Virus genome (UHGV): UHGV-1430452
Source: a virus
Length of the DNA stretch: 64,000 nucleotides
Strand: one strand, 5' to 3'
Shown here: in pieces, positions 5,921 to 55,008 of the stretch
Layout of the letters: every line of letters starts with the position of its first letter
Position numbering within the stretch: the stretch's first letter is position 1
The notes under the pieces: generated by a model
Told to the model about the DNA's origin: nothing
Database searches by the model: none
What the model saw: only the letters and a program-made list of their open reading frames with translations
Made by a program: the position numbers and the translations under genes

Positions 5921-5948
5921 CTATAATAGGGCGTGTAATTTTCGCGAG
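5921..5948 (-). promoter_or_regulatory. conserved promoter-like motif copy
   Basis: plus-strand ctataatagggcgtgtaattttcgcga; family consensus. Confidence 0.55.
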
Positions 5949-6022
5949 CCGACTTATCTTATATCAAGATTCGTAGACAAAAAGAAGAGGCCGGGAATCA
6001 ATCCCGAAACCTCCTCATTCTG

Positions 6023-6406
6023 TTAAACTTCTTCGTTTACTCCGATAGATACTACTCCTCCGATCAACTGATCTGGCTTCCAATCGTAAGCATCACATAA
6101 TTCTTTTCCAAAGTTACCGAGTTCTGATAATGGAACTCCGTCTGTCCAAATATCAAACCATTTATCTGGATTGTGACTCGATACTTCTGTTACCCCTTTC
6201 TGTAATAAAGTTTCTGGTACTTCCAGTTTCTTTAGTTTTGGATCAGGAATACTCGGAAGTTTATCCCAGTCAAAATCCTCAAATTTAGGTTTCTTTTTGG
6301 TTACAACGAATATAACTCCACCAGCTATCACTAGCCCGGTTCCAATAAGAATTTCCTTCTTGTGTTCCTTTACAAATATTTTTGCTTTCTCAAGTTTTTC
6401 TTTCAT
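6023..6406 (-). CDS. membrane protein (127 aa), N-terminal TM helix
   Basis: ORF with SD AAGGAG; hydrophobic GTGLVIAGGVIFVVT. Confidence 0.7.
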   Translation of the reverse strand: MKEKLEKAKIFVKEHKKEILIGTGLVIAGGVIFVVTKKKPKFEDFDWDKLPSIPDPKLKKLEVPETLLQKGVTEVSSHNPDKWFDIWTDGVPLSELGNFGKELCDAYDWKPDQLIGGVVSIGVNEEV

Positions 6407-6447
6407 AGTTTTGTTCTCCTTTCGACTTAAACAATTTTGTTTATTTG

Positions 6448-6474
6448 CATAATAGGAGTTGTTTATTTAGCGTA
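6448..6474 (-). promoter_or_regulatory. conserved promoter-like motif copy
   Basis: cataataggagttgtttatttagcg about 40 nt upstream of start at 6406. Confidence 0.55.
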
Positions 6475-6508
6475 AAAAAAAGGAAAGCCCAAGTCGTTTT
6501 GACCTGGG
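6474..6508 (-). terminator. rho-independent terminator
   Basis: minus-strand hairpin GACCCAGGUC-loop-GACUUGGG followed by U9 tract. Confidence 0.7.
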
Positions 6509-6529
6509 TCTTTGCCTTTAGATAATAGT

Positions 6530-7027
6530 TTAAATGATATCTTTATGTTCACCTTTAAACCATAAAGAACCATCCTCGAAACCTTCAATCAGTACACAAG
6601 TTCCGACAATATCGGTTTCGTGCTTATTATGTTCCACAACCAAACGATTACCTACTGTTTTCCATGACGATAAAGCTCGTTCGTATTTTACTTTTGTATT
6701 ATACGCAGACACATATCTCTTTTCGTAACCGTCCAATCTCTGTTTTAATTTCTTTACCTCATCACCATCCGGTTTCTCTTTTTCAGTTTGCTCTTTCAAT
6801 CTGTCAAGAGTTTCCGTGATATTGTAAGGTAATTCCTTCAATCTGTTCTTGGAAGTACTCAAGTTTTTTGCTGCTTGCTTATGTAAATAATTCTCAAGCT
6901 TATCGATCTTGTCGATAATGTTCTTTGCGGTATCAATCACGATCCAATTAGAACCAAGTTTTGTACCTAAATAAATAATTTCGTTTTCTTCCTGTTTCTT
7001 TAAAAAGTTGATAAATGTTGTTTTCAT
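6530..7027 (-). CDS. hypothetical protein (165 aa), coiled-coil rich
   Basis: co-directional ORF with motif 34 nt upstream. Confidence 0.7.
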   Translation of the reverse strand: MKTTFINFLKKQEENEIIYLGTKLGSNWIVIDTAKNIIDKIDKLENYLHKQAAKNLSTSKNRLKELPYNITETLDRLKEQTEKEKPDGDEVKKLKQRLDGYEKRYVSAYNTKVKYERALSSWKTVGNRLVVEHNKHETDIVGTCVLIEGFEDGSLWFKGEHKDII

Positions 7028-7060
7028 AAATATACCCCTTTCTTTAAATAAACTATTTTT

Positions 7061-7088
7061 CTATAAAGGGAGATGTTTATTTAGCGAG
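7061..7088 (-). promoter_or_regulatory. conserved promoter-like motif copy
   Basis: ctataaagggagatgtttatttagcgag. Confidence 0.55.
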
Positions 7089-7529
7089 TTAATCCATGTT
7101 CACTAATTCGTGAATTGAACATTTCAATGCTCTCGCCATTTTTATCAGATTACGAGAATTCGGAGTGGCTAGACCGTTTGTGTATTTACTTATCGTAACC
7201 TGAGTGACACCTATCTTTTCAGCTAATCGATCTTGTGTCATAGCTACGTTTCTCATTTTCCGATTTAGATTACGAGCAAATATCTTTCTCCATTCTTCTT
7301 CTGAAATGTCAATTGAATCTTCGTTGCCTGGATCATGAATCAGATAGGCTTGTCTATTAAGAAAATCATAAGCATACTTTTTACCGCCTTTGATCTTTAC
7401 CGTGATCTCTAATTGTGCACTAGGATACCAATCTAACATTTCTTCCGCTAGATTAGGATAATCCTGACAAAATGCTTCATATACGGGTTTCCAATATTTT
7501 TTACCGTCATTCATCTTAAGTCCCTCCAT
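7089..7529 (-). CDS. XRE-family HTH DNA-binding protein (146 aa)
   Basis: C-terminal HTH QDRLAEKIGVTQVTISKYTNG. Confidence 0.75.
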   Translation of the reverse strand: MEGLKMNDGKKYWKPVYEAFCQDYPNLAEEMLDWYPSAQLEITVKIKGGKKYAYDFLNRQAYLIHDPGNEDSIDISEEEWRKIFARNLNRKMRNVAMTQDRLAEKIGVTQVTISKYTNGLATPNSRNLIKMARALKCSIHELVNMD

Positions 7530-7542
7530 TTCTTAAAGATTG

Positions 7543-7971
7543 AATTATGTGCAGACCGAAATTCGTGAAAAATAAAAAAAATACATTTTTAAATTAATAT
7601 ACAACTACTTTATACTTTGGTTATATAACTAAAGTATAAAGTTACCTTACAACAATATATAAAGAAAAAATTATTTTTTACGAATTATGTGCAGACCGAA
7701 ATTCATTTTTACCGTTTTTAGGGCCAAAATGACCGAAAATAGCCAATTTAGCCCCATTTTTGACGAAAAGTGCCGAATTATTAGCAGACCAAAAATAATT
7801 ATTAGCAGACCAAAATTCTATTTTACCATCATTTTCTTATTTATTAGCAGACCAAAAATACCATTTTCCTATTTATTAGCAGACCGAAATTCGGAATTAT
7901 TAGCAGACCAAAAATAGCAAAAACTGAATTATTAGCAGACCAAAAATAATTATTAGCAGACCAAAATTCGG
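7543..7971. repeat. iteron array: 9 copies of a ~20-bp direct repeat (A)ATTATTAGCAGACCAAAA(T), variants ATTATGTGCAGACCGAAATTCG, irregular spacing
   Basis: copies near 7543, 7683, 7776, 7797, 7837, 7871, 7895, 7927, 7949; flanked by HTH and RHH genes. Confidence 0.85.
7607..7642. promoter_or_regulatory. 12-bp-arm perfect palindrome ACTTTATACTTT-N12-AAAGTATAAAGT upstream of the HTH gene; operator-like
   Basis: inverted repeat read directly. Confidence 0.6.
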
Positions 7972-7977
7972 CATATC

Positions 7978-8262
7978 TTACACATAATCGTCCTCATCTA
8001 TGTCGTCTTCATACTCAAATTCATCATTATAATCGTCACTACCAGATCCATATAACTCTTTTAAAGCTTCTTGACGTTTGTTAATACTATCGATAGATGC
8101 TTTATATGTACTGATTCTGATAAACTCCGACATAGACATTCCGCTAAGTCTAGCTGCCCTCTCTATAGACGAATACTCCTCGTCATTGCATTTAGAGAAA
8201 ATAGGTTTTCTTCTCGCTCCAAACTTCAACGGCCTCCCACGTTTCTTTTTAACTTCTTCCAT
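7978..8262 (-). CDS. ribbon-helix-helix (CopG/MobC-like) DNA-binding protein with acidic tail
   Basis: KRGRPLKFGARRKPIFSKCNDEEYSSIERAARLSGMSMSEFIR resembles RHH family; paralogs at 9504 and 12151. Confidence 0.65.
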   Translation of the reverse strand: MEEVKKKRGRPLKFGARRKPIFSKCNDEEYSSIERAARLSGMSMSEFIRISTYKASIDSINKRQEALKELYGSGSDDYNDEFEYEDDIDEDDYV

Positions 8263-8268
8263 AAAATA

Positions 8269-9771: not shown

Positions 9772-9843
9772 TTAATCTTTAAGATAACCAACTTTATATA
9801 AGAATCTTCCTACAACTGCCCAAAACTTCTGTCTGAGTGTCAT
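9772..9843 (-). CDS. possible micro-ORF (23 aa, hydrophobic)
   Basis: AGGAGGG SD 6 nt upstream; promoter-like motif 32 nt upstream. Confidence 0.3.
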   Translation of the reverse strand: MTLRQKFWAVVGRFLYKVGYLKD

Positions 9844-9874
9844 ATAGATCCCTCCTTTCTATTTGGTTTCTTTT

Positions 9875-9902
9875 CATAATAGGCGTTGTTAATATCACGA
9901 AA
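9875..9902 (-). promoter_or_regulatory. conserved promoter-like motif copy
   Basis: cataataggcgttgttaatatcacgaa. Confidence 0.5.
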
Positions 9903-9928
9903 GAAAAAGAGAGAAGAAGTATATCTCA

Positions 9929-10052
9929 GCTACACGTTTCTCTGCATCCATTTAAAGACACATTCACTGGTCAGTTCCAGTCCCACTAATATACTTTGAT
10001 GCTACACGTTTCTCCATACATAAGTATGTTCACTGGTCAGTTCCAGTCCCAC
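9929..10052. repeat. tandem direct repeat (2 units, period ~72 bp): GCTACACGTTTCTC ... TTCACTGGTCAGTTCCAGTCCCAC
   Basis: both blocks recur exactly; each has the hairpin ACTGG-N6-CCAGT; lies between two promoter-like motifs. Confidence 0.8.
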
Positions 10053-10072
10053 ATCAACTTTTATTCTTCTCT

Positions 10073-10100
10073 CATAATATAAAATGTATTTTTCGCGAAT
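10073..10100 (-). promoter_or_regulatory. conserved promoter-like motif copy, directly after a terminator-like hairpin
   Basis: cataatataaaatgtatttttcgcgaa. Confidence 0.5.
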
Positions 10101-10134
10101 AAAAAGAAGAGGCTGTAAAAGCCCCTTACTTGTT

Positions 10135-10518
10135 TTACTTAATTTTAATTGAGTCGTATTCCTCCTTAAATTTATTAAGCTTTTCCGTAAGTTCTTTTAA
10201 CTCCTCTTCATATCTTTGTTTTACTATTAATGACACTTCGGAATTGTGTTTGTCACATCCTTCGATTTTAGAGACTCGATAAGCTATCTTTCTGTTCAGT
10301 GTTCCTATAGCTTCTTCAAGAGCACCTTCTTTTACCACATCTCTCACGAACTCTATAGTTTCAGTGTTATTCTTTATCTGTATATGATTCTTACATATAA
10401 AGAACGTTACCAATCCTATAGAAACACATGAGACACCGGCAATTATTTTGCCATTGTTGTCCATAACCACTTCTTTGAAAGACCTCTTTCCTTTCTCTTT
10501 AACATCGTGCTTCTTCAT
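10135..10518 (-). CDS. membrane protein (127 aa)
   Basis: TM segment IIAGVSCVSIGLVTFFIC. Confidence 0.65.
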   Translation of the reverse strand: MKKHDVKEKGKRSFKEVVMDNNGKIIAGVSCVSIGLVTFFICKNHIQIKNNTETIEFVRDVVKEGALEEAIGTLNRKIAYRVSKIEGCDKHNSEVSLIVKQRYEEELKELTEKLNKFKEEYDSIKIK

Positions 10519-10551
10519 ATCAAATACCTCCTTTAGAAATTAATAGTTTTT

Positions 10552-10577
10552 CATAAAGGGGTATGTAATTTACGCGA
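10552..10577 (-). promoter_or_regulatory. conserved promoter-like motif copy
   Basis: cataaaggggtatgtaatttacgcga. Confidence 0.55.
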
Positions 10578-10595
10578 TCACAAAAACCTCAAATA

Positions 10596-17394: not shown

Positions 17395-17418
17395 ACTTTT
17401 ATCCTCCTTAATATCTTT

Positions 17419-17448
17419 CTATAAAGAAGAATGTTTACTTCGCGAATA
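17419..17448 (-). promoter_or_regulatory. conserved promoter-like motif copy
   Basis: ctataaagaagaatgtttacttcgcgaata. Confidence 0.55.
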
Positions 17449-18171: not shown

Positions 18172-18199
18172 AAATTTGTTCTCCTTTTTACTGTATTTT

Positions 18200-18229
18200 C
18201 TATAAAGGAGTTTGTTTTATCCGCGAATA
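18200..18229 (-). promoter_or_regulatory. conserved promoter-like motif copy
   Basis: ctataaaggagtttgttttatccgcgaata. Confidence 0.55.
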
Positions 18230-20845: not shown

Positions 20846-20982
20846 TTTCCAAGAATAAGAATAGAGTTGCGCAAATCTAATGCCTTCGCGAGGGGGCGGC
20901 TTTTACACCGAGGACAGTCGCAACATTAGATATCTCTATCCTAAGCATAACTAATCCCTATCCATTTAATTATGCAGTTTCT
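20846..20982 (-). ncRNA. candidate small non-coding RNA: promoter-like motif, ~135-nt GC-rich structured segment, then terminator
   Basis: only micro-ORFs; 8-bp inverted repeat ATCTAATG/CATTAGAT encloses a GC-rich core; bounded by motif 20983..21009 and terminator 20803..20845. Confidence 0.4.
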
Positions 20983-21009
20983 CATAATAGGAATTGTATT
21001 TATCGCGAA
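20983..21009 (-). promoter_or_regulatory. conserved promoter-like motif copy
   Basis: cataataggaattgtatttatcgcgaa. Confidence 0.55.
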
Positions 21010-21398: not shown

Positions 21399-21433
21399 AA
21401 TAAATACCTCCTTTAAATAACTTTAATGATTTC

Positions 21434-21460
21434 CATTAAAGGAGATGTTTACGACGCGAG
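21434..21460 (-). promoter_or_regulatory. conserved promoter-like motif copy
   Basis: cattaaaggagatgtttacgacgcgag; near-identical to copy at 22006. Confidence 0.55.
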
Positions 21461-21998: not shown

Positions 21999-22005
21999 AT
22001 TGTTT

Positions 22006-22032
22006 CATTAAAGGAGATGTTTACGACGCGAG
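22006..22032 (-). promoter_or_regulatory. conserved promoter-like motif copy
   Basis: cattaaaggagatgtttacgacgcgag. Confidence 0.55.
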
Positions 22033-24099: not shown

Positions 24100-24147
24100 A
24101 ATCTGTTTCTCCTTTCATTGTTTGAATTTAACTTTTATGTATAGTTT

Positions 24148-24174
24148 CATAATAGCAAGTGCGAATATCGCGAA
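24148..24174 (-). promoter_or_regulatory. conserved promoter-like motif copy
   Basis: cataatagcaagtgcgaatatcgcgaa. Confidence 0.5.
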
Positions 24175-27740: not shown

Positions 27741-27759
27741 TTTAACTACTACTCTCTCT

Positions 27760-27784
27760 CATAATAGGTGTTGTAAATTTCGCG
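27760..27784 (-). promoter_or_regulatory. conserved promoter-like motif copy, ~225 nt upstream of vWA gene start
   Basis: cataataggtgttgtaaatttcgcg. Confidence 0.55.
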
Positions 27785-27787
27785 TCT

Positions 27788-33917: not shown

Positions 33918-33952
33918 TTCAATTCCTCCTTTAATAAAAAAATGTTTTATTT

Positions 33953-33977
33953 CATTAAAGTAGATGTTTTTTACGCG
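33953..33977 (-). promoter_or_regulatory. conserved promoter-like motif copy
   Basis: cattaaagtagatgttttttacgcg. Confidence 0.5.
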
Positions 33978-34235
33978 TTATTTCCTAATAAACTGTCCAC
34001 ATGATCCGCAATAATGATCATACTCAGCTGTAGGTATTGGTGCCTCGCATGTCGGACATAATTTAAGAGATCCCTGGTCTGGATCGTCCGCCACTCGATA
34101 TTTTAATTCACTAACTACTTCTGTAAAAAGATCGGCGTTAGGTCCACCGTTTTTAATTTCCAAATCTCTAAGTTCTCTCATTCTATTTACAATATTGATT
34201 ACTCTCTGATTTCTTTCTTCTAAATATTTTTTCAT
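33978..34235 (-). CDS. zinc-ribbon protein (85 aa)
   Basis: CPTC...CGSC. Confidence 0.6.
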   Translation of the reverse strand: MKKYLEERNQRVINIVNRMRELRDLEIKNGGPNADLFTEVVSELKYRVADDPDQGSLKLCPTCEAPIPTAEYDHYCGSCGQFIRK

Positions 34236-35976: not shown

Positions 35977-36012
35977 TTTAAGTTCCTCCTTTAAGAAATA
36001 TAGACTTCATTC

Positions 36013-36037
36013 CATTAAAGGCGATGTTTATGTCGCG
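36013..36037 (-). promoter_or_regulatory. conserved promoter-like motif copy
   Basis: cattaaaggcgatgtttatgtcgcg. Confidence 0.55.
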
Positions 36038-36039
36038 TA

Positions 36040-37268: not shown

Positions 37269-37278
37269 CTTATCTCTT

Positions 37279-37304
37279 CATTAAAGCCGTTGTATTTTTC
37301 GCGA
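37279..37304 (-). promoter_or_regulatory. conserved promoter-like motif copy followed by a hairpin (attenuator-like)
   Basis: cattaaagccgttgtatttttcgcga. Confidence 0.45.
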
Positions 37305-37310
37305 TTCGTA

Positions 37311-46972: not shown

Positions 46973-47011
46973 AGCAAGATCCTCCTTTAAAATAATTTTA
47001 AGTATTTTCTT

Positions 47012-47036
47012 CATAAAGCACTGTGTATTTTTCGCG
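47012..47036 (-). promoter_or_regulatory. conserved promoter-like motif copy
   Basis: cataaagcactgtgtatttttcgcg. Confidence 0.5.
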
Positions 47037-47041
47037 TATGA

Positions 47042-48029: not shown

Positions 48030-48034
48030 TCTTC

Positions 48035-48061
48035 TCATAATAGCGCTTGTAAATTTCGCGA
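48035..48061 (-). promoter_or_regulatory. conserved promoter-like motif copy directly upstream of the tRNA
   Basis: cataatagcgcttgtaaatttcgcgaa. Confidence 0.55.
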
Positions 48062-48106
48062 ATATAGATCTTCAGAAACAAAAAAGAAGAACCCCGAAGG
48101 ATTCTC

Positions 48107-48277: not shown

Positions 48278-48301
48278 TTTTCTCGTCTCCTTTCTTCATT
48301 C

Positions 48302-48327
48302 CATTAAAGGAAATGTTTTTGTCGCGA
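48302..48327 (-). promoter_or_regulatory. conserved promoter-like motif copy
   Basis: cattaaaggaaatgtttttgtcgcga. Confidence 0.55.
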
Positions 48328-48364
48328 TACCGGTTTCGCTATATCAAAATATCATCGTTTATCG

Positions 48365-48860: not shown

Positions 48861-48893
48861 CAAAAAGAAAAGAGGCCCCTATTTCAGGACCTC
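48861..48893 (-). terminator. rho-independent terminator overlapping the stop of 48879..49082
   Basis: stem GAGGUCC/GGGCCUC then UUUUCUUUUUG. Confidence 0.6.
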
Positions 48894-49082: not shown

Positions 49083-49114
49083 AGTTTTATCCTCCTTTAA
49101 AAATATAATCTTTT

Positions 49115-49140
49115 CATTAAAGGCGTTGTTTATTTAGCGA
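49115..49140 (-). promoter_or_regulatory. conserved promoter-like motif copy
   Basis: cattaaaggcgttgtttatttagcga. Confidence 0.55.
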
Positions 49141-49349
49141 GTGTAATGGATATGCTCATTGTTTAATTCGTCGAGATGTTTAATAAAATCTAAATATCTT
49201 TTATTTCGTCTATTCTCCACAAAGTTTATAACTAACCAAGCAATCCCTACGATAGGCAAGCCAACGAATACTAATAGAAATAGTAAGCATGTAATCATAG
49301 AAACAAGCGTATTCATAAATCTTCTCCTTTCAATACTCTTCGTAATCAA
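49134..49349 (-). CDS. small membrane protein (71 aa)
   Basis: two hydrophobic segments; track start may overextend into the motif. Confidence 0.55.
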   Translation of the reverse strand: MITKSIERRRFMNTLVSMITCLLFLLVFVGLPIVGIAWLVINFVENRRNKRYLDFIKHLDELNNEHIHYTR

Positions 49350-50106
49350 TGAACGGCTCTGTGAAATCTACAATATAACATTCAATACCGTCGTCCATTT
49401 CTACTTTTGTATGGTGGAAATATAGCCAACCATCCCAGTACATTTCATACATCTGAGCTGCGGACCAACCCATAAATTCACCGTAATCCTGTCGATCAAT
49501 CTCTAGTAAATCGTAATAATCGTTTAAAGATGCACCACCGGATTGAGATAGCATTTTATTAATCTCATACTCTGCTCTCAATTGAGTTTCTTTCGTCACA
49601 CGGTAATAACGTTTGGAATATTCATCGTAGAATAGTGTTTTGCCATCCTCGTATTCGTCGTCATATTCTTCTTTGTCTTCTTCCTCGTAATGGTCTTTTG
49701 CTACAGCAGCACGAATGAGTTTGTCTCCGTCTTCACCATATAACTTTTTAACTTTGTTTTTGTACTCTTTGTGAGTTTGGTCTAGTAAGGCATAAGCAGA
49801 TGCGATGGCTGCTTGGGAATGTTTGTTTAATAGATTCGCGCCAAATATGCAAGCTAGGGTTCCTGTTCCAATCAATAAGGAAGGAATATATGTTGGTCCT
49901 GCTACTCGAATAGTCTCCCATTTTGTTAATTCATCTCCTTTCTCTTCTTCAGCTAGTTCAATAAGTTCCATTGCTTTCGGAGTAGCTTTAACCGCCATTA
50001 CAGCTGTACCTACCACTCCGGCAGCTCCTAATACTGTTAATATAGTAGAGCTGTTTTTCTTTACGAATCTTTTCGAAACTGTTAGTAAGTCATTCATTTC
50101 CAGCAC
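49330..50106 (-). CDS. two-TM-anchored modular protein, paralog family A (258 aa)
   Basis: N-terminal domain aligns with 44029 and 47042. Confidence 0.75.
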   Translation of the reverse strand: MLEMNDLLTVSKRFVKKNSSTILTVLGAAGVVGTAVMAVKATPKAMELIELAEEEKGDELTKWETIRVAGPTYIPSLLIGTGTLACIFGANLLNKHSQAAIASAYALLDQTHKEYKNKVKKLYGEDGDKLIRAAVAKDHYEEEDKEEYDDEYEDGKTLFYDEYSKRYYRVTKETQLRAEYEINKMLSQSGGASLNDYYDLLEIDRQDYGEFMGWSAAQMYEMYWDGWLYFHHTKVEMDDGIECYIVDFTEPFIDYEEY

Positions 50107-50218
50107 GCTCCTTGGCGATAAATTTGGTAAAAATAAAAAGAGAAAGAAAAGAGTCAGCTTGTTGTGTAAACCAAGTCTAACTCAATTCTTTTTGTCATTA
50201 TCCGAAATAACAATATCC

Positions 50219-50245
50219 CATAACAGGTGATGTAATTTTCGCGAA
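50219..50245 (-). promoter_or_regulatory. conserved promoter-like motif copy
   Basis: cataacaggtgatgtaattttcgcgaa. Confidence 0.55.
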
Positions 50246-50479: not shown

Positions 50480-50648
50480 TCCTTTAATTGGTTTTTGATA
50501 AAAATAAAAAGAGAATACAATGACTTCAGGGTCGGCCCAACGAAAACCGTTGCCCGGTGGGTAGCATGTTTTATTACGTTATTACGTGCCGCTACGCCTT
50601 CGTGTCTCACCACTGGATTTCCACCAGTATCTATCCATTGCTTTCTCT
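50480..50648 (-). ncRNA. candidate structured 5' leader / cis-regulatory RNA (~165 nt, GC-rich) between promoter motif and start of 50249..50479
   Basis: hairpins ACTGG-N7-CCAGT and CAACG-N5-CGTTG, followed by U-rich tract just upstream of the SD. Confidence 0.35.
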
Positions 50649-50675
50649 CATAATAGGTGATGTAATTTTCGCGAA
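50649..50675 (-). promoter_or_regulatory. conserved promoter-like motif copy (consensus match)
   Basis: cataataggtgatgtaattttcgcgaa. Confidence 0.55.
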
Positions 50676-50702: not shown

Positions 50703-50966
50703 CTAGACAAATTCTTTAATAATTATTGTTCCACCAACTACATCGATTTTTATTTTATTCATCGCTTTCAACATACTAGCCACTTTTTGCACTGGTAACT
50801 TACTTGTGAAACCATAGAACACCAAGTCGCCCATGGTATATACATGCCCTACTGAATACTTAACTTCAATATCGGCTGTATATTTGCCAAGGCAATCCAT
50901 TGCTCCTAAATTTTTCACAACTTCGTTTTTATTCGCGCATAAAGTAATTTCATATTTAGTAAACAT
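50703..50966 (-). CDS. hypothetical protein (87 aa)
   Basis: SD AAGGAGGA; motif upstream. Confidence 0.65.
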   Translation of the reverse strand: MFTKYEITLCANKNEVVKNLGAMDCLGKYTADIEVKYSVGHVYTMGDLVFYGFTSKLPVQKVASMLKAMNKIKIDVVGGTIIIKEFV

Positions 50967-51001
50967 ATAAATTCCTCCTTATTCGATTTCATTGTTTTTC
51001 T

Positions 51002-51028
51002 CATAATAGGTGATGTAATTTTCGCGAA
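51002..51028 (-). promoter_or_regulatory. conserved promoter-like motif copy
   Basis: cataataggtgatgtaattttcgcgaa, identical to 50649 copy. Confidence 0.55.
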
Positions 51029-51191: not shown

Positions 51192-51227
51192 TTTAGATTC
51201 CTCCTGTTAAGCAATTTATTATCTTTC

Positions 51228-51254
51228 CATAATAGGACTTGTAATTTTCGCGAA
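51228..51254 (-). promoter_or_regulatory. conserved promoter-like motif copy
   Basis: cataataggacttgtaattttcgcgaa. Confidence 0.55.
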
Positions 51255-51256: not shown

Positions 51257-51285
51257 AAAAGAAAAGACACCGTGTTTCAGGTGCC
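51257..51285 (-). terminator. rho-independent terminator directly followed by promoter motif
   Basis: stem GGCACC/GGUGUC (G-U) then UUUUCUUUU. Confidence 0.6.
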
Positions 51286-51512
51286 TAATCCTCTGAATCA
51301 ACCATTTGTTCAATTTTCAGTAATACTTTCTGATCAATTTCTCCATCCGCATTGATATGAAATCGTATTTTACCATCCTTCATCTCAGCTTCTATCTCAC
51401 TAATACGGATGTCTGGTTTGACTCCAATATTTTTGTATATAGCTCTAGATATAAGTTTGGCTACCATACCTCTCATAAATCTAGTAGATAATTTAATTTT
51501 CATTTCGTCCAT
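51285..51512 (-). CDS. hypothetical protein (75 aa)
   Basis: co-directional ORF. Confidence 0.65.
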   Translation of the reverse strand: MDEMKIKLSTRFMRGMVAKLISRAIYKNIGVKPDIRISEIEAEMKDGKIRFHINADGEIDQKVLLKIEQMVDSED

Positions 51513-51539
51513 AATTACCTCCTCCTTCTAGGTTGTTTC

Positions 51540-51567
51540 CTATAATAGGGGAAGTTTAAGTCGCGAA
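51540..51567 (-). promoter_or_regulatory. conserved promoter-like motif copy
   Basis: ctataataggggaagtttaagtcgcgaa. Confidence 0.55.
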
Positions 51568-51706: not shown

Positions 51707-51733
51707 GATTATCTTCTCCTTTCATTTTCTTTT

Positions 51734-51758
51734 CACAATAGGAGAAGTTTTTATCGCG
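51734..51758 (-). promoter_or_regulatory. conserved promoter-like motif copy
   Basis: cacaataggagaagtttttatcgcg. Confidence 0.5.
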
Positions 51759-51809
51759 TGCATTATCAGTTCCTTCAAATACAAAATAAAAGAGACCAAT
51801 CGGCCTCTC

Positions 51810-51959: not shown

Positions 51960-51974
51960 AAATATACCTCCTTT

Positions 51975-52000
51975 CTATAATAGAAGAGGTTTAAATCGCG
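51975..52000 (-). promoter_or_regulatory. conserved promoter-like motif copy
   Basis: ctataatagaagaggtttaaatcgcg. Confidence 0.5.
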
Positions 52001-52350
52001 CGTCTATCGAAGCAAGTTTCCCATCGTTCTCGCTTAACTGGCTTCATTTTCATAGTCCACATCATTTGTCGGACCGTTACGGTGGGATATAAACCGTTCT
52101 CAGGTTCTCCCGATCTATCCTCGAAGAACTCCAGGAATCTTTCATGTAAATATAAAGTGTCTGTCAGCCACGGATCAATCTCGCCCCACCAGGTATTTTT
52201 CGTCGCTGGATCATATCGCTGCTGAATAACAGCTAGTCCTTTTCGTCCCATTTTGAATAAAGTACATTTACTGTAAACTGGATGATCACATTCATAAGTT
52301 TCTCCGTACATCGATACATAAACTTTTGGCTTTTCGTAGTGATAACGCAT
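51991..52350 (-). CDS. hypothetical protein (119 aa)
   Basis: co-directional ORF. Confidence 0.65.
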   Translation of the reverse strand: MRYHYEKPKVYVSMYGETYECDHPVYSKCTLFKMGRKGLAVIQQRYDPATKNTWWGEIDPWLTDTLYLHERFLEFFEDRSGEPENGLYPTVTVRQMMWTMKMKPVKRERWETCFDRRAI

Positions 52351-52445
52351 ATTACTATTATCCTTTCTTTAACTTTAGTTATATAACTTTTGTTTAAACT
52401 CTCGCGTTAGGAAATATAAAAGAAGAAAAAAAAAGAAAAGACTAT

Positions 52446-52525
52446 GGGAATAGCGCGGGATTCGAACCCACGACGTTGAGTTTCCTCTTATTCTTCCATT
52501 AGAACTAACCGTCTTAACTATTCCA
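52446..52525 (-). other. tRNA-like element: canonical acceptor stem and T-arm (GGGTTCGAATCCC) but no resolvable anticodon arm; pseudo-tRNA or tRNA-derived structured RNA
   Basis: acceptor GGAATAG/CTATTCC and T-loop TTCGAAT found; every 5-bp/7-nt anticodon-arm register checked by hand fails; promoter motif directly upstream. Confidence 0.4.
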
Positions 52526-52572
52526 GAGACTTCTTCCGATATATTGCTATACGGGAATTGTTCTCTTCTTTT

Positions 52573-52600
52573 CTATAATAGGAAATGTTTATTTAGCGAA
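52573..52600 (-). promoter_or_regulatory. conserved promoter-like motif copy upstream of the tRNA-like element
   Basis: ctataataggaaatgtttatttagcgaa. Confidence 0.55.
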
Positions 52601-52643: not shown

Positions 52644-53012
52644 TTATTCGTTACCATTGAGTTTCTCAATAGCTTCAACCTTCCTGCTGTCAAACATCGT
52701 AGAATTTACAATACTCATCACAGCTTTGTAATATGTTTTCGGCTGATCCTTCTTGAGCAACTCTATCGCCTGAACTTTACGACTATCAAACATGCTGCTG
52801 TTCATTATCGAAGCTACCGCACTGTCATAATCTGCTGTGCTAAATATATCCGCTAATAAATCAACTTCATATGTGTCCTGTTTTCGTTTCTTTTCACGCA
52901 ATACAACTGCCACAATTGGAATCGCAATACCAATCCCATTTGCTACATATTCTGTGATTTTCCATAAACTCTCTTTTGTTTTCTCGCTAGTTAAAACTTC
53001 TTTGATTTTCAT
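52644..53012 (-). CDS. membrane-anchored protein with internal sequence repeat (122 aa)
   Basis: duplicated block MNSSMFDSRKVQAIELL / VNSTMFDSRKVEAIEKL. Confidence 0.65.
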   Translation of the reverse strand: MKIKEVLTSEKTKESLWKITEYVANGIGIAIPIVAVVLREKKRKQDTYEVDLLADIFSTADYDSAVASIMNSSMFDSRKVQAIELLKKDQPKTYYKAVMSIVNSTMFDSRKVEAIEKLNGNE

Positions 53013-53039
53013 ATCAATAACCTCCTATAAGTTTATTCT

Positions 53040-53066
53040 CATAACAGGCGTTGTAATAATAGCGAA
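53040..53066 (-). promoter_or_regulatory. conserved promoter-like motif copy
   Basis: cataacaggcgttgtaataatagcgaa. Confidence 0.5.
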
Positions 53067-53112
53067 AAAGAAGAGCCTAAGTCATTTCGACTCAAGCCCT
53101 TCCATTTTGAAA

Positions 53113-53496
53113 TTACTTTTTTGGGAGTAACTTCTGAATGAATCCTCGACCCATTATTGTTGTGATGGTTCCAGTCTCTTCGAATTTGATAGACTTGATT
53201 GTGCCCCAGATAGTAACCGCTGTCGGTATAACAATACCCGCTCCTGTTAAGCAATTCTTAACAACTCGATCTTTTCGTTCATCTTTAAGCTGCTCTGCTC
53301 TTAATTCAGCATCAACATTTTGCTGATCCTTTTTAAGTTCTTGTTCAGCCTTAATTTTCTCAAGTTCGATTGCTCGATCACATAACTTTGTCAGGCCGTC
53401 TACCGTATTTTTGTACTTATCTGTACCTACTTCAAGTTTTCCTAACTCTTCGAATTCGTCCTGAATCTCATCTTTTAATAATGTTTCAATACTCAT
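53113..53496 (-). CDS. coiled-coil membrane protein (~127 aa); start at SD-supported second ATG
   Basis: SD AAGGAGGAG before ATG at 53496; C-terminal TM. Confidence 0.65.
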   Translation of the reverse strand: MSIETLLKDEIQDEFEELGKLEVGTDKYKNTVDGLTKLCDRAIELEKIKAEQELKKDQQNVDAELRAEQLKDERKDRVVKNCLTGAGIVIPTAVTIWGTIKSIKFEETGTITTIMGRGFIQKLLPKK

Positions 53497-53523
53497 TTTG
53501 AACTCCTCCTTATATTCGTATTT

Positions 53524-53549
53524 CATAATAGGGAATGTTATTTTTGCGA
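53524..53549 (-). promoter_or_regulatory. conserved promoter-like motif copy
   Basis: cataatagggaatgttatttttgcga. Confidence 0.5.
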
Positions 53550-53747
53550 CAGATCTACTCTAAGCATTACGTGTTTATCTTTTCGTAGCTTATATGCCTT
53601 ACCACTATCTATTTCTAAAAATAAATACGGTGCTGAGTCTGGATCTGAGCTGTCTACTTTCAGTGTGCCGATTGGCTTTTTTACTAAGAGTGTCGTTGCC
53701 ACAACTGCACCTATCAGCATACCTACTAATAAAAATAAAAGTTCCAC
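53538..53747 (-). CDS. small membrane protein (~70 aa); probable GTG start after SD AAGGAGGAAG
   Basis: track start lacks SD and overlaps motif; TM LLFLLVGMLIGAVVATTLLV. Confidence 0.5.
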   Translation of the reverse strand: MELLFLLVGMLIGAVVATTLLVKKPIGTLKVDSSDPDSAPYLFLEIDSGKAYKLRKDKHVMLRVDLSQK

Positions 53748-53890: not shown

Positions 53891-53891
53891 T

Positions 53892-53918
53892 AAAGAAAAA
53901 AGAGAGCCTAAGCCCTCT
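53892..53918 (-). terminator. rho-independent terminator
   Basis: stem GAGGGC/GCUCUC loop UUAG then U6. Confidence 0.55.
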
Positions 53919-54144
53919 TATCTGTCATAAAACTTGGTAACTGAAGTTCTGGTTTATAAGTCATTAACTCTGCTTCATATAGCCTCATGATAATAGCTAT
54001 CTCATCTTCATGAATACTTTTTATCAACTTAAAGACTTTATCATAATCAACATCTGATTTATTCTTCATTTGACAAATATAATCCACGAGTCTGGTATAC
54101 TTATCATCCGCAGTTCCTATCATTGCCGCAAATTTAACTTCCAT
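53908..54144 (-). CDS. hypothetical protein (78 aa)
   Basis: co-directional ORF. Confidence 0.65.
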   Translation of the reverse strand: MEVKFAAMIGTADDKYTRLVDYICQMKNKSDVDYDKVFKLIKSIHEDEIAIIMRLYEAELMTYKPELQLPSFMTDKRA

Positions 54145-54178
54145 AATTTATCCTCCTTAAATTTAAAGTTTTATGTTT

Positions 54179-54206
54179 CTATAAAGTAGTATGTATTTTT
54201 GGCGAA
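54179..54206 (-). promoter_or_regulatory. conserved promoter-like motif copy
   Basis: ctataaagtagtatgtatttttggcgaa. Confidence 0.5.
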
Positions 54207-54225
54207 AAAGAAAAGAAGAGACCGA

Positions 54226-54426
54226 TTAGGCCTCCTCTTTAAATAACTCAGGGTATTTCTCCATCAGTTCTTTTCTGTCTCGTTCAATGTCTTTTTCTAT
54301 ATGCTCGATTTCTGCTTCCAATTTACCTGTGCTTTTACCTAAACGGTAACCCAGATAAGATCCTACAGCATAAACCAATCCGGCATATAAACCAAAACCT
54401 AAACCAGCTTTTAAATTAGCTTTCAT
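54226..54426 (-). CDS. small glycine-zipper membrane protein, YtxH-like (66 aa)
   Basis: GLGFGLYAGLVYAVGSYLGYRLG then coiled coil. Confidence 0.65.
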   Translation of the reverse strand: MKANLKAGLGFGLYAGLVYAVGSYLGYRLGKSTGKLEAEIEHIEKDIERDRKELMEKYPELFKEEA

Positions 54427-54452
54427 GATAGATCACTCCTATAATTTATTCT

Positions 54453-54478
54453 CATAATAGGCGTTGTTTTAGTCGCGA
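54453..54478 (-). promoter_or_regulatory. conserved promoter-like motif copy
   Basis: cataataggcgttgttttagtcgcga. Confidence 0.55.
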
Positions 54479-54657
54479 TCATCAAACGGTACTTCTATGT
54501 TTTCAATCTCGTCAGAAATAATCTCCCCGTCACCGATAAGTAGTTCTCTTTTGTTTATTTGATTAACGCTAGTTCGATATATACCCTCAGCTACTGCTAG
54601 TCCGATAAATGTACTTACTCCCCAAAGAATTCCTTTGATTAATTTATTAGTATCCAT
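54469..54657 (-). CDS. small membrane protein (~62 aa); start trimmed to internal ATG
   Basis: SD-like GAGGAAAA before ATG at 54657; TM ILWGVSTFIGLAVAEGIY. Confidence 0.5.
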   Translation of the reverse strand: MDTNKLIKGILWGVSTFIGLAVAEGIYRTSVNQINKRELLIGDGEIISDEIENIEVPFDDRD

Positions 54658-54737
54658 TTTGAATTTTCCTCTCATGATATATTCTCTATTGGAAATCAAA
54701 AGGAAGAGTATCTGCATAGATACCCGCCTTTTTGTTT

Positions 54738-54953
54738 TTAATTATTGCTTGTGGTCCAACCCATGTTGTTCTGTGTGAATGAGTTGTTAATGCCGTTGAT
54801 AGTTCTTACTCTATCCTCGTACAATGAATTGTCGCTAATGATGCTAACTCCGAATTTCCATTTGAAGTCTGGAATTTCGTTAGCTGCTTTCATAGCTTCA
54901 TCCCATTTCTCAAGGAAGACTTCTATCGCATATCCTCTCTCTACACTATCCAT
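54738..54953 (-). CDS. hypothetical protein (71 aa)
   Basis: co-directional ORF; motif upstream. Confidence 0.6.
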   Translation of the reverse strand: MDSVERGYAIEVFLEKWDEAMKAANEIPDFKWKFGVSIISDNSLYEDRVRTINGINNSFTQNNMGWTTSNN

Positions 54954-54980
54954 GTCGTTACCCTCCTTTATAATAATTTT

Positions 54981-55008
54981 CTATAAAGGAGCGTGTAATT
55001 TTCGCGAA
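54981..55008 (-). promoter_or_regulatory. conserved promoter-like motif copy
   Basis: ctataaaggagcgtgtaattttcgcgaa. Confidence 0.55.

Follow-up and report, generated by a model that had tools for sequence, protein, structure and literature searches.

A repeated, strictly oriented 30-nt motif in a gut phage genome: a probable phage-specific promoter, likely read by a single-chain RNA polymerase candidate

Results

The Polymerase Operon and the Early Units

We analysed a window of 64,000 nucleotides from the virus genome UHGV-1430452. Its first kilobases hold a minus-strand operon that encodes a large protein with RNA polymerase signatures and two nucleases. This operon, the leader ahead of it and the promoter of the immediate-early operon comprise the following features.

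42..302, minus strand: 86-aa protein (phrog_4303), always right after the polymerase gene, including in actinobacteriophages
305..3475, minus strand: candidate RNA polymerase of the single-chain two-barrel type, 1056 aa, proposed to read the motif
3479-4105, minus strand: exonuclease, DUF2800/Cas4-like, polymerase operon, kept in all relatives
4120-4410, minus strand: 96-aa endonuclease, polymerase operon, kept in all relatives
4515..4550, minus strand: leader hairpin with T-tract, starting at position 27 of motif copy 35
55873..55902, minus strand: sigma-A-like promoter, TTGACA-N16/18, serving an immediate-early operon with a Cro-like product (55836-55057)

In the 1056-aa protein, R533-x-P535 and D580-F-D-G-D584 were invariant across 21 homologues of 42-67% identity, and these RxP and DFDGD signatures cover 5 of the 8 residues that define two-barrel RNA polymerases (PMC2919709). 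Two HTH modules were found, an N-terminal one at ~aa 144-167 and a C-terminal one resembling sigma-70 region 4 at ~aa 1016-1054. The family is large and annotated as "HTH regulator", the AlphaFold model had a pLDDT of 38, and homology to YonO of SPbeta, the only characterised prophage single-chain RNA polymerase of the superfamily, had no statistical support. Judged by its sequence signatures, the protein is a candidate RNA polymerase, with the 86-aa protein as a possible cofactor. The operon sits behind a motif copy, between terminator-like hairpins. Among the early ORFs of the window, no protein with sigma-70 region 2, 3 or 4 was detected; the only sigma-region-4-like HTH was that on the polymerase candidate. 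Several Cro/CI-type HTH proteins are encoded in the window, and the Cro-like operon is the only early unit that lacks the motif.

The Motif and Its Copies

The consensus of the motif is TTCGCGAAAWWWACA-N3-CCTWTTAT-GRRA (30 nt). When both strands of the window were scanned with the 30-nt PWM, exactly 35 matches of 21-40 bits were obtained, all on the minus strand and none on the plus strand, with no matches in the gap between 7 and 21 bits; shuffled sequence yielded 0.16-1.26 chance matches. This repetition in a single orientation is genuine and lies far above chance. The invariant orientation reported in the initial annotation thus held for every copy, but its count of more than 35 was slightly too high, and its pattern with an N4 spacer had no match even when 3 mismatches were allowed, the true spacer being N3. 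Two copies, at 4547-4576 and 4678-4707, fall outside the range given there, 5921-55008, and the true span is 4547-55008. The label "genome-wide" has to be dropped, as the motif is restricted to the early/middle region and the polymerase operon and none was found in late structural genes.

Each of the 35 copies lies between genes or overlaps no more than the final codons of the ORF before it. Motif positions 27-30 were R in 97%, R in 95%, R in 98% and A in 89%, respectively. In the "-10"-like hexamer, A occupies position 2 in 48% of the window copies; most gut relatives have TTTTAT, with T at that position, and TGTTAT and TCTTAT also occur. In 8 copies of the window, TTCGCGAA is perfectly palindromic; this palindrome is not kept in relatives, where motif positions 1-2 vary. 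No Rfam family matched the motif, and no internal structure was found in it. The copies were as follows.

Copy 1, 54979..55008, minus, 33.8 bits; first after the lysogeny switch; ahead of gene 54738-54953
Copy 2, 54450..54479, minus, 35.6 bits; ahead of gene 54226-54426
Copy 3, 54177..54206, minus, 25.8 bits; right after terminator 54240-54212; ahead of gene 53908-54144
Copy 4, 53521..53550, minus, 32.6 bits; ahead of gene 53113-53496
Copy 5, 53037..53066, minus, 31.1 bits; right after terminator 53103-53069; ahead of gene 52644-53012
Copy 6, 52571..52600, minus, 34.7 bits; after terminator 52631-52607; heads a non-coding unit with a tRNA-like T-arm (52440-52574)
Copy 7, 51973..52002, minus, 25.5 bits; SD (AGGAGG) from motif position 30-31, ATG at position 44
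Copy 8, 51731..51760, minus, 30.8 bits
Copy 9, 51538..51567, minus, 34.2 bits; after terminator 51600-51578; ahead of gene 51285-51512
Copy 10, 51225..51254, minus, 39.6 bits; after terminator 51286-51265
Copy 11, 50999..51028, minus, 39.8 bits; after terminator 51060-51043; ahead of gene 50703-50966
Copy 12, 50646..50675, minus, 39.8 bits; after terminator 50709-50689; heads a predicted ~140-nt non-coding RNA (50510-50649)
Copy 13, 50216..50245, minus, 38.3 bits; then a ~120-nt structured leader or small RNA with a terminator at its end
Copy 14, 49112..49141, minus, 34.9 bits; ahead of gene 48879-49082
Copy 15, 48299..48328, minus, 35.4 bits; ahead of gene 48107-48277
Copy 16, 48033..48062, minus, 36.2 bits; tRNA 5' end (48031) 5 nt downstream of position 27 (48036)
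Copy 17, 47009..47038, minus, 25.3 bits; at the head of the ~10-kb replication operon (46972 to 37311, with primase/polymerase)
Copy 18, 37276..37305, minus, 32.0 bits
Copy 19, 36010..36039, minus, 36.9 bits; ahead of gene 35722-35976
Copy 20, 33950..33979, minus, 28.2 bits; ahead of gene 33702-33917
Copy 21, 27757..27786, minus, 34.1 bits; heads a predicted ~95-nt small RNA (27665-27760), terminal helix from motif position 27
Copy 22, 24145..24174, minus, 26.6 bits
Copy 23, 22003..22032, minus, 32.9 bits; ahead of gene 21525-21971
Copy 24, 21431..21460, minus, 33.4 bits; ahead of gene 21042-21398
Copy 25, 20980..21009, minus, 37.0 bits; after a terminator; then a ~130-nt non-coding stretch
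Copy 26, 18198..18227, minus, 28.0 bits; ahead of gene 17896-18171
Copy 27, 17417..17446, minus, 27.3 bits
Copy 28, 10549..10578, minus, 33.7 bits; ahead of gene 10135-10518
Copy 29, 10070..10099, minus, 32.6 bits; after a terminator; then a tandem-repeat non-coding stretch (9930-10073)
Copy 30, 9872..9901, minus, 33.1 bits
Copy 31, 7059..7088, minus, 34.9 bits; ahead of gene 6530-7027
Copy 32, 6445..6474, minus, 32.6 bits; after a terminator; ahead of gene 6023-6406
Copy 33, 5919..5948, minus, 36.9 bits
Copy 34, 4678..4707, minus, 21.4 bits, upstream half degenerate; belongs to the first of two modules of motif plus hairpin, in tandem before the polymerase operon
Copy 35, 4547..4576, minus, 28.6 bits; at the head of tRNA-Met and of the operon with the endonuclease, exonuclease, RNA polymerase and 86-aa genes

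Early and replication genes carry the motif in front of them, and ~190 kb of late-region sequence had no copy; a search for a second class of repeated promoter-like motif found none. A start codon lies 25-42 nt past motif position 27 in 24 of the 35 copies, in line with the 25-40 nt proposed initially. Copies were also correctly placed ahead of tRNA-Met (4438-4511), a second tRNA (47958-48031) and the tRNA-like element at 52440-52574, and often right after terminators: a strong hairpin with a T-tract directly precedes 10 of the 35, as against 1.1% of control positions. Between cassettes, 21 intrinsic terminators were found where 6.3 were expected.

Promoter Geometry and Predicted Start Site

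The spacer between TTCGCG and the "-10"-like hexamer is 14 bp, and none of the motif copies has a -35 element at 16-18 bp from the hexamer, bearing out the earlier remark that the CGCG and TATTAT blocks stand too near each other to be a sigma-70 -35/-10 pair. Of 233 non-redundant sites, 198 had an identifiable SD and start codon, and the SD core began at motif positions 27-30 in 48 of these (~24%), indicating that the RNA must start at or before ~position 27. The distance from motif to SD ranges from 0 to >70 nt.

After their polymerase-operon copy, 19 of 22 relatives carry a leader hairpin like that at 4515..4550; it begins ≤5 nt from position 27 in these 19 and exactly there in 12. In addition, two small RNAs each have a terminal helix that begins at position 27 and ends right ahead of the U-tract, with z = -5.6 in one case. 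These leader and small-RNA helices suggest that transcription probably starts at the conserved purine at position 27, right after TTAT. With this purine as +1, the conserved stretch would extend from ~-26 to +4, placing TCGCG at ~-25 to -21, ACA at -14 to -12, CC at -8/-7, TWTTAT at -6 to -1 and GRRA at +1 to +4. Conservation of the start region has a precedent in the AR9 promoter, which is conserved up to +1.

Conservation in Relatives and in Actinobacteriophages

Among loci selected solely for the presence of the polymerase, the motif was found on the polymerase strand in 28 of 31 bacterial prophage loci and in all 27 tabulated viral loci. About 27 of 30 loci retain a copy at a distance of 0.8-1.3 kb upstream of the polymerase, and copy 35 is its counterpart in the window.

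The same consensus occurs on the gene strand in cultured phages, namely Arthrobacter phage Heisenberger (8 copies), Streptomyces phage Kardashian (10 copies) and Gordonia phage Kenosha (8-9 copies), at the start of early genes and on one strand; their polymerases are 39-42% identical to that of the window. These soil phages infect a different bacterial phylum from the gut phage, and the motif is almost unchanged between them. Their hexamer is a perfect TATAAT with a G at the -14 equivalent, so host sigma-A could use those copies. The 5'-UTR past the motif is also kept in the Gordonia and Streptomyces phages. No integrase or repressor was seen in the examined regions of the motif-bearing actinobacteriophages.

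Replication proteins, nucleases, DUF6353, a few small domainless proteins, the polymerase and its 86-aa neighbour are common to all these phages; of these proteins, only the polymerase showed signatures of DNA binding or transcription. The immediate-early proteins of the window are not conserved in the actinobacteriophages compared. Host-specific factors were rejected as the reader, given the same 30-nt motif across phyla together with a ~40%-identical polymerase; the reader must therefore be phage-encoded.

Discussion

The evidence strongly supports the motif as a phage-specific promoter that is not of the sigma-70 type. A phage-specific reader, as suggested in the initial annotation, agrees with the geometry, with the lack of sigma domains in the early proteins and with the shared motif in actinobacteriophages. 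Each copy would launch a short minus-strand transcription unit; these units comprise gene cassettes, tRNAs and small RNAs. From sequence comparison, the most probable reader is the 1056-aa polymerase (305-3475), to which we assign a probability of roughly 0.6. The earlier naming of this protein is moderately supported by its being the sole shared protein with DNA-binding or transcription signatures, whereas its own operon lying behind the motif speaks against it. Its two HTH modules, one sigma-region-4-like, would touch the upstream boxes, and the catalytic core would melt TTAT. A precedent is P23-45, in which 14 copies of one motif serve a virion-delivered two-barrel RNA polymerase. The last copy heads the polymerase's own operon, which may create a feedback loop; with no terminator in between, this unit probably reads on into the late genes after genome circularisation and would then form an autocatalytic unit.

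The main difficulty for the polymerase as reader is bootstrapping, as its operon lies behind a motif copy. The first molecules must come from another source; the host enzyme could make them, or they could arise through leaky read-through or enter with the virion. The intrinsic terminators between cassettes also point against the proposal and suggest a host-type enzyme. A further point against it is that YonO serves the late genes of SPbeta from a single promoter, in contrast to the window, where the motif lies before early and replication genes.

These difficulties are what a second explanation, which we consider unlikely, would resolve. Host RNA polymerase with sigma-A would use TWTTAT/TATAAT as -10, and a conserved phage adaptor on TCGCG...ACA would replace -35 recognition, modelled on MotA/AsiA at T4 middle promoters; the polymerase, made from the last such promoter, would serve late genes from a single-copy promoter of its own that has so far escaped detection, in the manner of YonO. 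The cascade would run from the sigma-A promoter at 55902 (Cro-like operon) to the motif units, the polymerase and the late genes. It fits SPbeta, whose yonP-yonO operon is under a host promoter and whose YonO transcribes only late genes. The perfect TATAAT of the actinobacteriophages, the terminator-bounded cassettes and the motif-free late regions agree with it as well. However, about half of the window copies and the majority of gut relatives lack the essential A at hexamer position 2, and a start 6-8 nt past the hexamer would cut the SD in ~24% of sites. Sigma, MotA-like and AsiA-like proteins were looked for and none was detected; the immediate-early proteins, a possible source of the adaptor, are not conserved in the motif-bearing actinobacteriophages, and the search for a second promoter class for the polymerase found none.

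It is improbable that the upstream half is mainly an operator on weak host promoters, bound by a phage regulator or by the polymerase-like protein, which would then act as a regulator through its HTH modules. The model here is SPBRE, bound by the master repressor MrpR and likewise repeated at ~ten SPbeta early promoters including yonP-yonO, and both the palindromic TTCGCGAA of 8 window copies and the Cro/CI-type proteins would suit such a role. SPBRE, however, lies inside canonical TAGACA-N17-TATAAT promoters and has no sequence similarity to the motif; no MrpR/YopR homologue was found, the palindrome is unconserved in relatives, and the motif occurs equally in actinobacteriophages with neither integrase nor repressor in the regions examined. 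The fixed orientation, the +1 to +4 purines and the missing -35 would be left unexplained. An RNA-level role, as a processing site or translational operator within polycistronic transcripts, is very improbable: the motif's 3' end adjoins or overlaps the SD in ~1/4 of sites and the 5'-UTR is conserved in Gordonia and Streptomyces phages, but 10 of the 35 copies directly follow strong intrinsic terminators, so that upstream RNA would have ended already, not only ORFs but also tRNAs and small RNAs have copies ahead of them, the SD distance is variable, and the motif has neither an Rfam match nor internal structure.

The motif is most likely the promoter of a widespread phage RNA polymerase that is now labelled a DNA-binding regulator in databases.

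Organization of the Early Region and of a Repeated Intergenic Element

The window, bases 1-64000 of a metagenomic phage contig of 96.6 kb, contains about 130 mostly small minus-strand genes, including those for a 1408-aa primase/polymerase and a helicase, and its extreme end is occupied by an operon of an endonuclease, an exonuclease, a 1056-aa polymerase-like protein (305-3475, minus strand; hereafter the polymerase) and an 86-aa protein. The lysogeny switch comprises the following features.

Features of the lysogeny switch
56053-56649, plus strand: CI-like two-HTH repressor
Within the switch: large serine integrase
55836, minus strand: Cro-like gene with a sigma-A-like TTGACA promoter ahead of it

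A 30-nt weight matrix refined on the window recovered exactly 35 sites of the repeated element (the motif), all on the minus strand and scoring 21-40 bits; the 7-21-bit range was empty, and the plus strand of the window had no site; shuffled sequence gave 0.16-1.26 sites, depending on the threshold. The consensus is T-T-C-G-C-G-A-A-A-W-W-W-A-C-A-n-n-n-C-C-T-W-T-T-A-T-G-R-R-A, in which C3, C5, C14, T23, A25 and T26 are near-invariant. The first block alone had 22 minus-strand matches (3.6 expected), and the palindrome TTCGCGAA had 8 (0.9 expected). The initial annotation had described a promoter-like repeat of invariant orientation, present in more than 35 copies between 5921 and 55008, with four nucleotides between its two blocks. 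The observation itself holds, with corrections to spacer, copy number and range: TTCGCGAAAATTACA-N4-CCTATTATGAG had no match with three mismatches allowed, the real gap between the blocks being 3 nt, and most sites lie inside that range, with those at 4707 and 4576 outside it, giving a real span of 55008 to 4547.

All 35 sites are intergenic or trim only the end of an ORF, and all are on the gene strand. The next start codon lies 25-42 nt past motif position 27 in 24 sites, and a strong hairpin with a T-tract directly precedes the motif in 10 sites, as compared with 1.1% of control positions. Intrinsic terminators are enriched on the minus strand (21 found, 6.3 expected). The motif sites are intergenic, many with a start codon near and some with a terminator directly before them, and the region is therefore a series of cassettes, each running from a motif through one or more genes or an RNA to a terminator; some of these carry a tRNA, a tRNA-like element or a small RNA. 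The late genes at 59.0-69.6 kb, among them those for tail and holin, have the motif on neither strand.

Some of the RNA units deserve separate description. The second tRNA (47958-48031, minus strand), with motif position 27 only 5 nt upstream, scores 62 bits in Rfam; ARAGORN assigns it no anticodon and reports a 2-nt 'ta', and it may have an unusual anticodon loop, perhaps that of a suppressor or frameshift tRNA. The motif-driven non-coding unit at 52440-52574 (minus strand) contains a tRNA-like T-arm (GGGUUCGAAUCCC) and folds well (z = -3.6), with no tRNA call by ARAGORN or Rfam. Two motif-driven small RNAs (27665-27760 and 50510-50649, minus strand) are each closed by a helix that pairs the 5' end with the bases immediately preceding the terminator U-tract. 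Within the RNA at 50649, GAGACACGAAGGCGUAG resembles a block, GUGACACGAAUGUAGUAG, that follows motif copies in three distant prophages (loci listed with small RNAs: L043, ~19400; L050, ~17400; L067, ~9650), and such RNAs may constitute a conserved phage small-RNA family. Two tandem units of ~70 nt (GGGACUGGAACUGACCAGUGAA...GAGAAACGUGUAG) occupy 9930-10073 (minus strand), between motif copies 29 and 30 as numbered from 55008 downward.

Promoter Class and Start Site

We compared the motif with sigma-70-type promoters, whose -10 element almost always has A at position 2. The distance from the TTCGCG block to the -10-like hexamer (TWTTAT) is 14 bp, and the positions where a -35 would lie, 17 bp upstream of the hexamer, hold little information. 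T at hexamer position 6 is present in 97% of the window copies and A at position 2 in only 48%; in most gut relatives position 2 is T (TTTTAT). The hexamer of actinobacteriophage copies is TATAAT, which fits the sigma-70 -10 feature. The window copies thus have neither a -35 at 16-18 bp nor a near-invariant A at position 2, and a sigma-70 scan gave 43 matches where 42 were expected, that is, no excess. Judged by this geometry, the motif does not appear to be a sigma-70-type promoter.

Transcription is predicted to start at G/A27, directly after TTAT, on three grounds: overlap with Shine-Dalgarno (SD) sequences, purines at positions 27-30, and helices of leaders and small RNAs that begin at position 27. 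The window and related loci together supplied 233 non-redundant sites, of which 198 have an identifiable SD and start codon. The SD core begins at motif positions 27-30 in 48 of these 198 (for example ...TTTATGAAAggagttgatatttATG), so that a start 6-8 nt past the hexamer would cost such sites their ribosome-binding site. Positions 27-30 are nearly always purines. In the leaders of polymerase operons, a hairpin starts no more than 5 nt from position 27 in 19 of 22 cases and exactly at position 27 in 12; an alignment-based consensus fold of these leaders is weak, as the loops vary, and it is each leader folded alone that is informative. In the small RNAs at 27760 and 50649, the terminal helix runs from position 27 and closes just before the U-tract. 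T7-type promoters have the same start geometry. The same is true of the promoters of the AR9 non-virion RNA polymerase (PMC9209446).

The Motif Accompanies the Polymerase in Gut Prophages and Cultured Phages

The polymerase family counts at least 8000 proteins in databases (E <= 1e-10), and members are encoded in 31 prophage loci of gut Clostridia (Eubacterium ramulus, Hungatella hathewayi, Lachnospira hominis and others), on 595 viral contigs and in 250 cultured phages; one Blautia variant alone is found on 572 contigs. Among prophage and viral loci picked solely for carrying the polymerase, the motif was present in 28 of 31 and 27 of 27 tabulated loci, respectively, always on the polymerase strand, and at the thresholds applied, scans of related loci and cultured-phage genomes gave no opposite-strand hit. 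The upstream half of the motif has drifted where the polymerase is most divergent. Nearly family-wide, one copy, of sequence CGCGAAAAAAACAtgCCCTTTTATGAAGagagagg, lies 0.8-1.3 kb upstream of the polymerase gene, and the hairpin after it has a 5' arm that would be the start of the transcript; in Hungatella this copy is the sole motif in 22.7 kb. Downstream of the polymerase gene, 20 loci of about 10 kb each yielded 1 copy in total, and in a close relative, packaging and structural genes fill the corresponding region as an array free of terminators.

Dozens of independent viral contigs, that of the window among them, stop 250-400 bp past the polymerase gene, inside a conserved G/C-rich element (GCACCCCCTCCC ... 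ATCGCGGCGGTCTT ... AAAATTCTCCGG; window 1-41 and beyond, 9803-10361 of the related locus L072, and gap 1 of about 20 related loci), after which come an HNH endonuclease gene and then the terminase genes. The element is probably a cos site or genome terminus, a reading that agrees with the 9-base cohesive ends of Mudcat-type phages (PMC5513430).

In the 250 cultured phages, whose hosts include Arthrobacter, Gordonia, Streptomyces, Lactococcus, Faecalibacterium and others, the polymerase is 36-42% identical over 95% of the protein and always lies at the right genome end. The genomes of Arthrobacter phage Heisenberger and the window phage are syntenic. Scanning with the window-trained matrix gave the following results.

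Motif copies in cultured phages
Arthrobacter phage Heisenberger: 8 copies, seven at the early-gene start and one directly upstream of the endonuclease-exonuclease-polymerase operon
Streptomyces phage Kardashian (60% GC): 10 copies at the early-region start
Gordonia phage Kenosha: 8-9 copies at the early-region start
Lactococcus phage P162: 2 weak copies, with only the 3' two-thirds of the motif kept

Of the 4 cultured phages examined, 3 thus have the motif, and these represent three actinobacterial genera. Every copy lies on the gene strand, the best opposite-strand score being below 8 bits, and the consensus in these phages, sTCGC(G/A)nnnWTTACAnGsCCTATAATGAGA, is essentially the window motif. 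As the two host phyla, spanning about 40-72% GC, have no common specific reader of such a long element, the reader would have to be phage-encoded. The phage-specific reading put forward by the initial annotation is strongly supported by this cross-phylum conservation, by the non-sigma-70 geometry and by the lack of a sigma factor, no Sigma70 domain being found in any early ORF of at least 60 aa in the window.

Conserved in all four phages are the window's polymerase with its 86-aa neighbour, the primase/polymerase, the helicase and a ssDNA-binding protein, together with nucleases, DUF6353 paralogues and a handful of small proteins that have no known domain. The immediate-early proteins that lie downstream of the Cro-like promoter fall outside this set. 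Within this common set, only the polymerase has DNA-binding or transcription signatures. Its role as the reader of the motif, also proposed initially, is on these grounds moderately supported, and we put its probability at about 0.6.

Several other features emerged from the comparison. In Kardashian and Kenosha (L154 and L155), conservation extends past the motif through the whole 5'-UTR (GAGAcccctacgaaagga-N6-8-ATG), which suggests that each promoter of these phages carries a standardised leader and ribosome-binding module. DUF6353, with four paralogues in the window (44029-44967, 47042-47869, 49330-50106 and 21525-21971, minus strand), is conserved in all the distant actinobacteriophages and the Lactococcus phage, some copies being annotated as 'membrane protein', and appears from this distribution to be a core gene of the phage supergroup. 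The window phage has the genome plan of Heisenberger, Kardashian and Kenosha, with a plus-strand module (56053-58968) that carries the CI-like repressor, the large serine integrase and two small genes inserted where the lysis genes meet the early region. No integrase is annotated in the examined regions of the actinobacteriophages, and the architecture, otherwise conserved, appears in the window phage in a temperate, derived form. Note that the genomics paper on Arthrobacter phages mentions no promoter, motif or RNA polymerase (PMC5513430), and that characteristic motif strings had no match in the relevant papers searched.

Properties of the Polymerase

The 1056-aa protein matches phrog_4291 ('RNA-dependent RNA polymerase') end to end. 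Two-barrel RNA polymerases are defined by eight universally invariant residues (PMC2919709), and the catalytic signature read here, IRYPHGG...SGADFDGDTV, contains the R-x-P and D-x-D-x-D signatures of the beta'-type barrel, that is, 5 of the 8. These residues (R533, P535, D580, D582 and D584) are invariant among 21 homologues of 42-67% identity. D338, K344, K365 and K381 are likewise invariant and are putative candidates for the Asp and two Lys of the beta-type barrel. The AlphaFold single-sequence model had a pLDDT of 38, and profile searches of the PDB gave matches in the HTH regions only. The N-terminal HTH is accompanied by a C-terminal HTH that scores above the Pfam cut-off for Sigma70_r4 (28.9 as against 24.1 bits). 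Conservation of the HTH modules (0.56) is no higher than that of the rest of the protein (mean 0.51) and therefore adds no support to the reader model.

The family consists of single chains of 0.9-1.06 kaa with two fused HTH modules, and no separate specificity subunit was found. Where the homologues (P0001-P0120) are named at all, they are called ArsR or CsgD family regulators, and phage records usually read 'HTH DNA-binding domain protein'; the family looks systematically misannotated.

Comparison with SPbeta

SPbeta resembles the window phage in being a temperate Firmicute phage with a single-chain two-barrel RNA polymerase gene just upstream of its late genes, and in having a repeated element at early promoters, including one before the polymerase operon. 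Orthology of the polymerase with the SPbeta enzyme YonO was rejected: BLASTP gave E = 0.14 and hhalign a probability of 0.7%, and YonO belongs to phrog_8308 rather than phrog_4291, although the sole hhalign alignment pairs the catalytic motifs despite that probability. When every window protein was compared with SPbeta by tblastn, the matches were limited to the serine integrase, one HTH protein and an HNH fragment. The repeated element of SPbeta (SPBRE), defined from ten target promoters of MrpR as AAATACAAAWAATATGTATA inside TAGACA-N17-TATAAT, was rejected as an analogue of the motif: it is an unrelated sequence of different architecture, a repressor operator inside canonical sigma-A promoters, and no homologue of MrpR (YopR) was found in the window.

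SPbeta has no motif copy, the best match scoring 10 bits. Forrest et al. (2017) left the promoter of YonO-type enzymes undetermined. A weak match, GAAATTACATACCCT at about 60150, was rejected as the YonO promoter, as it lies downstream of the primer-extension primer. The 13-mer TCATTTATGARGG, on the other hand, occurs exactly twice in the 134-kb SPbeta genome (0.009 expected per strand), at 60603 and 60446 on the minus strand of NC_001884 (loci L001-L003). The two lie on the strand of the late genes within the yonN-yonK gap, to which the YonO start site has been mapped, one of them between the published primer-extension primers. Both have TCG-N2-TAAT upstream, and the 13-mer has C-TTTATG-A-R-G in common with the 3' half of the motif. 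We regard TCATTTATGARGG as a candidate core of the YonO promoter and as a lead only. If the YonO start (B. subtilis 168, NC_000964.3, 2225998) is the G of TCATTTATG/AGGG (about 60438 in the SPbeta record), YonO shares the initiator of the motif, and the two systems would possibly have this element in common. They differ in that YonO has one promoter and the window 35 motif copies.

Comparison with Other Phage Promoters

The motif co-occurs with a polymerase gene and is single in orientation, co-directional with genes and intergenic, as are promoters of phage-encoded polymerases, and we consider that it would work like those of the T7 class, AR9/phiKZ and P23-45. The late promoters of the AR9/phiKZ non-virion enzymes and the motifs of P23-45 are likewise phage-specific, multi-copy, of one orientation and unrelated to the host -35/-10. 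In P23-45, the virion RNA polymerase has an AT-rich motif in 14 copies and the non-virion enzyme a GC-rich motif in 7, so that one strongly conserved motif before many early genes is read by a single-chain two-barrel enzyme. The non-template consensus of AR9 is AACA(-11..-8)-N6-TA(+1); in both AR9 and the motif, conservation runs up to the start site (predicted for the motif), and the ACA box and TTAT-G of the motif stand in the AR9 order. However, the motif is about 30 nt long as against 6 specified bases in AR9, the distance from ACA to the start is 12 nt, taking the predicted start, as against 8, and the window enzyme belongs to a separate, uncharacterised family.

T7-type promoters extend from about -17 to +6, with TATA right before a purine-rich +1. 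Like the motif, they are contiguous blocks of similar size, present in dozens of copies per genome and co-varying with the phage polymerase gene, and the A/T tetranucleotide, G start and following purines of TTAT-GAGA (with the predicted start) parallel TATA-GGGAGA of T7. The window polymerase, unlike that of T7, has no Pol-A fold signature and carries the DFDGD and RxP signatures of two-barrel enzymes, and its gene is itself behind the motif. T7-group promoters diverge quickly, whereas the motif is nearly unchanged at about 40% polymerase identity and across phyla.

T4 middle promoters, some tens of which precede delayed-early and middle genes, work by sigma appropriation, combine a MotA box at -30 with a sigma-70 -10 and have no -35. 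Both they and the motif place a phage-specific box some 14 bp ahead of a -10-like hexamer, but the sigma-70 -11 A is absent in many motif copies and the predicted start is directly after the hexamer; no MotA or AsiA homologue was detected in the window. Taken by its sequence, the motif would fall outside every described promoter family and represent a new class tied to an uncharacterised, misannotated polymerase family.

Search for a Second Promoter Class

No second promoter class was found in the window and the gaps of related loci, although a lone late promoter could escape detection. The conserved gap-1 element was rejected on account of its G/C-richness and its position at contig termini, and CACTATGGAGATGA in gap 2 is coding sequence of an HNH endonuclease (H-N-A-I-H-Y-G-D-E). 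A third candidate, GATTGATATTT, occurs 27 times on the gene strand with one mismatch allowed and never on the other strand (e.g., 11707, 11162, 9495, 8441 and 8274, minus strand). It was rejected as a translational-coupling junction (GGAGGATTGATATTTTATG) and terminator loop: most copies read GGAGGAT-TGA-TATTTT-ATG, that is, SD, upstream stop, spacer and next start, and two lie in the loops of near-identical terminators at 33675 and 9748. In most copies, GATTGATATTT is thus part of a recurrent translational-coupling cassette.

Proposed Model and Its Significance

In the proposed model, the polymerase would recognise the promoter through its own HTH modules, without need of a sigma factor or separate specificity subunit, and would initiate at the G after TTAT. 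One ~30-nt promoter, almost unchanged between phages of Actinobacteria and Firmicutes, would drive the early genes, tRNAs, small RNAs and the polymerase's own operon, forming an autocatalytic loop. The location of this operon at the cohesive genome end would allow either expression at first entry or packaging of the enzyme in the virion. That all of this holds jointly, a widespread unrecognised family of two-barrel RNA polymerases with built-in HTH promoter recognition, a near-unchanged promoter and an autocatalytic loop, is a tentative proposal, somewhat less probable than its converse.

Given that the polymerase operon depends on a motif copy and has insulating hairpins, the first polymerase molecules need another source. 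Weak recognition by the host RNA polymerase where the hexamer is TATAAT is plausible, and terminator read-through from the Cro-like promoter is a candidate. So, by analogy with N4, crAss-like phages and P23-45, is an enzyme brought in by the virion. A tandem duplication of a ~130-nt module (4547-4745, minus strand) immediately precedes tRNA-Met and the polymerase operon, each unit consisting of TTTACATATAAAA(A)GTACACACCCTA, a degenerate motif and a hairpin; the TTTACA in it could be the -35 element through which a weak host promoter supplies the operon. A further difficulty is the precedent of SPbeta, where the phage polymerase transcribes late genes from a single promoter; in the window phage the late genes lack the motif. 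They may be served by read-through from the copy at the polymerase operon after the genome circularises.

The prediction is sharp, extends across phyla and is directly testable in cultured systems, as hosts and phages are available for Arthrobacter, Gordonia and Streptomyces (SEA-PHAGES collection). If true, prophage-type single-chain two-barrel RNA polymerases would gain their first candidate promoter, and the compact polymerase-promoter pair, seemingly active in hosts of about 40% to 72% GC, could offer an orthogonal expression system for Gram-positive bacteria. Thousands of HTH, ArsR and CsgD labels in gut Lachnospiraceae prophages and actinobacteriophages would need changing, and transcription units, tRNAs and small RNAs would become predictable from sequence. 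It would also explain the early programme of these phages, including abundant prophages of the human gut.
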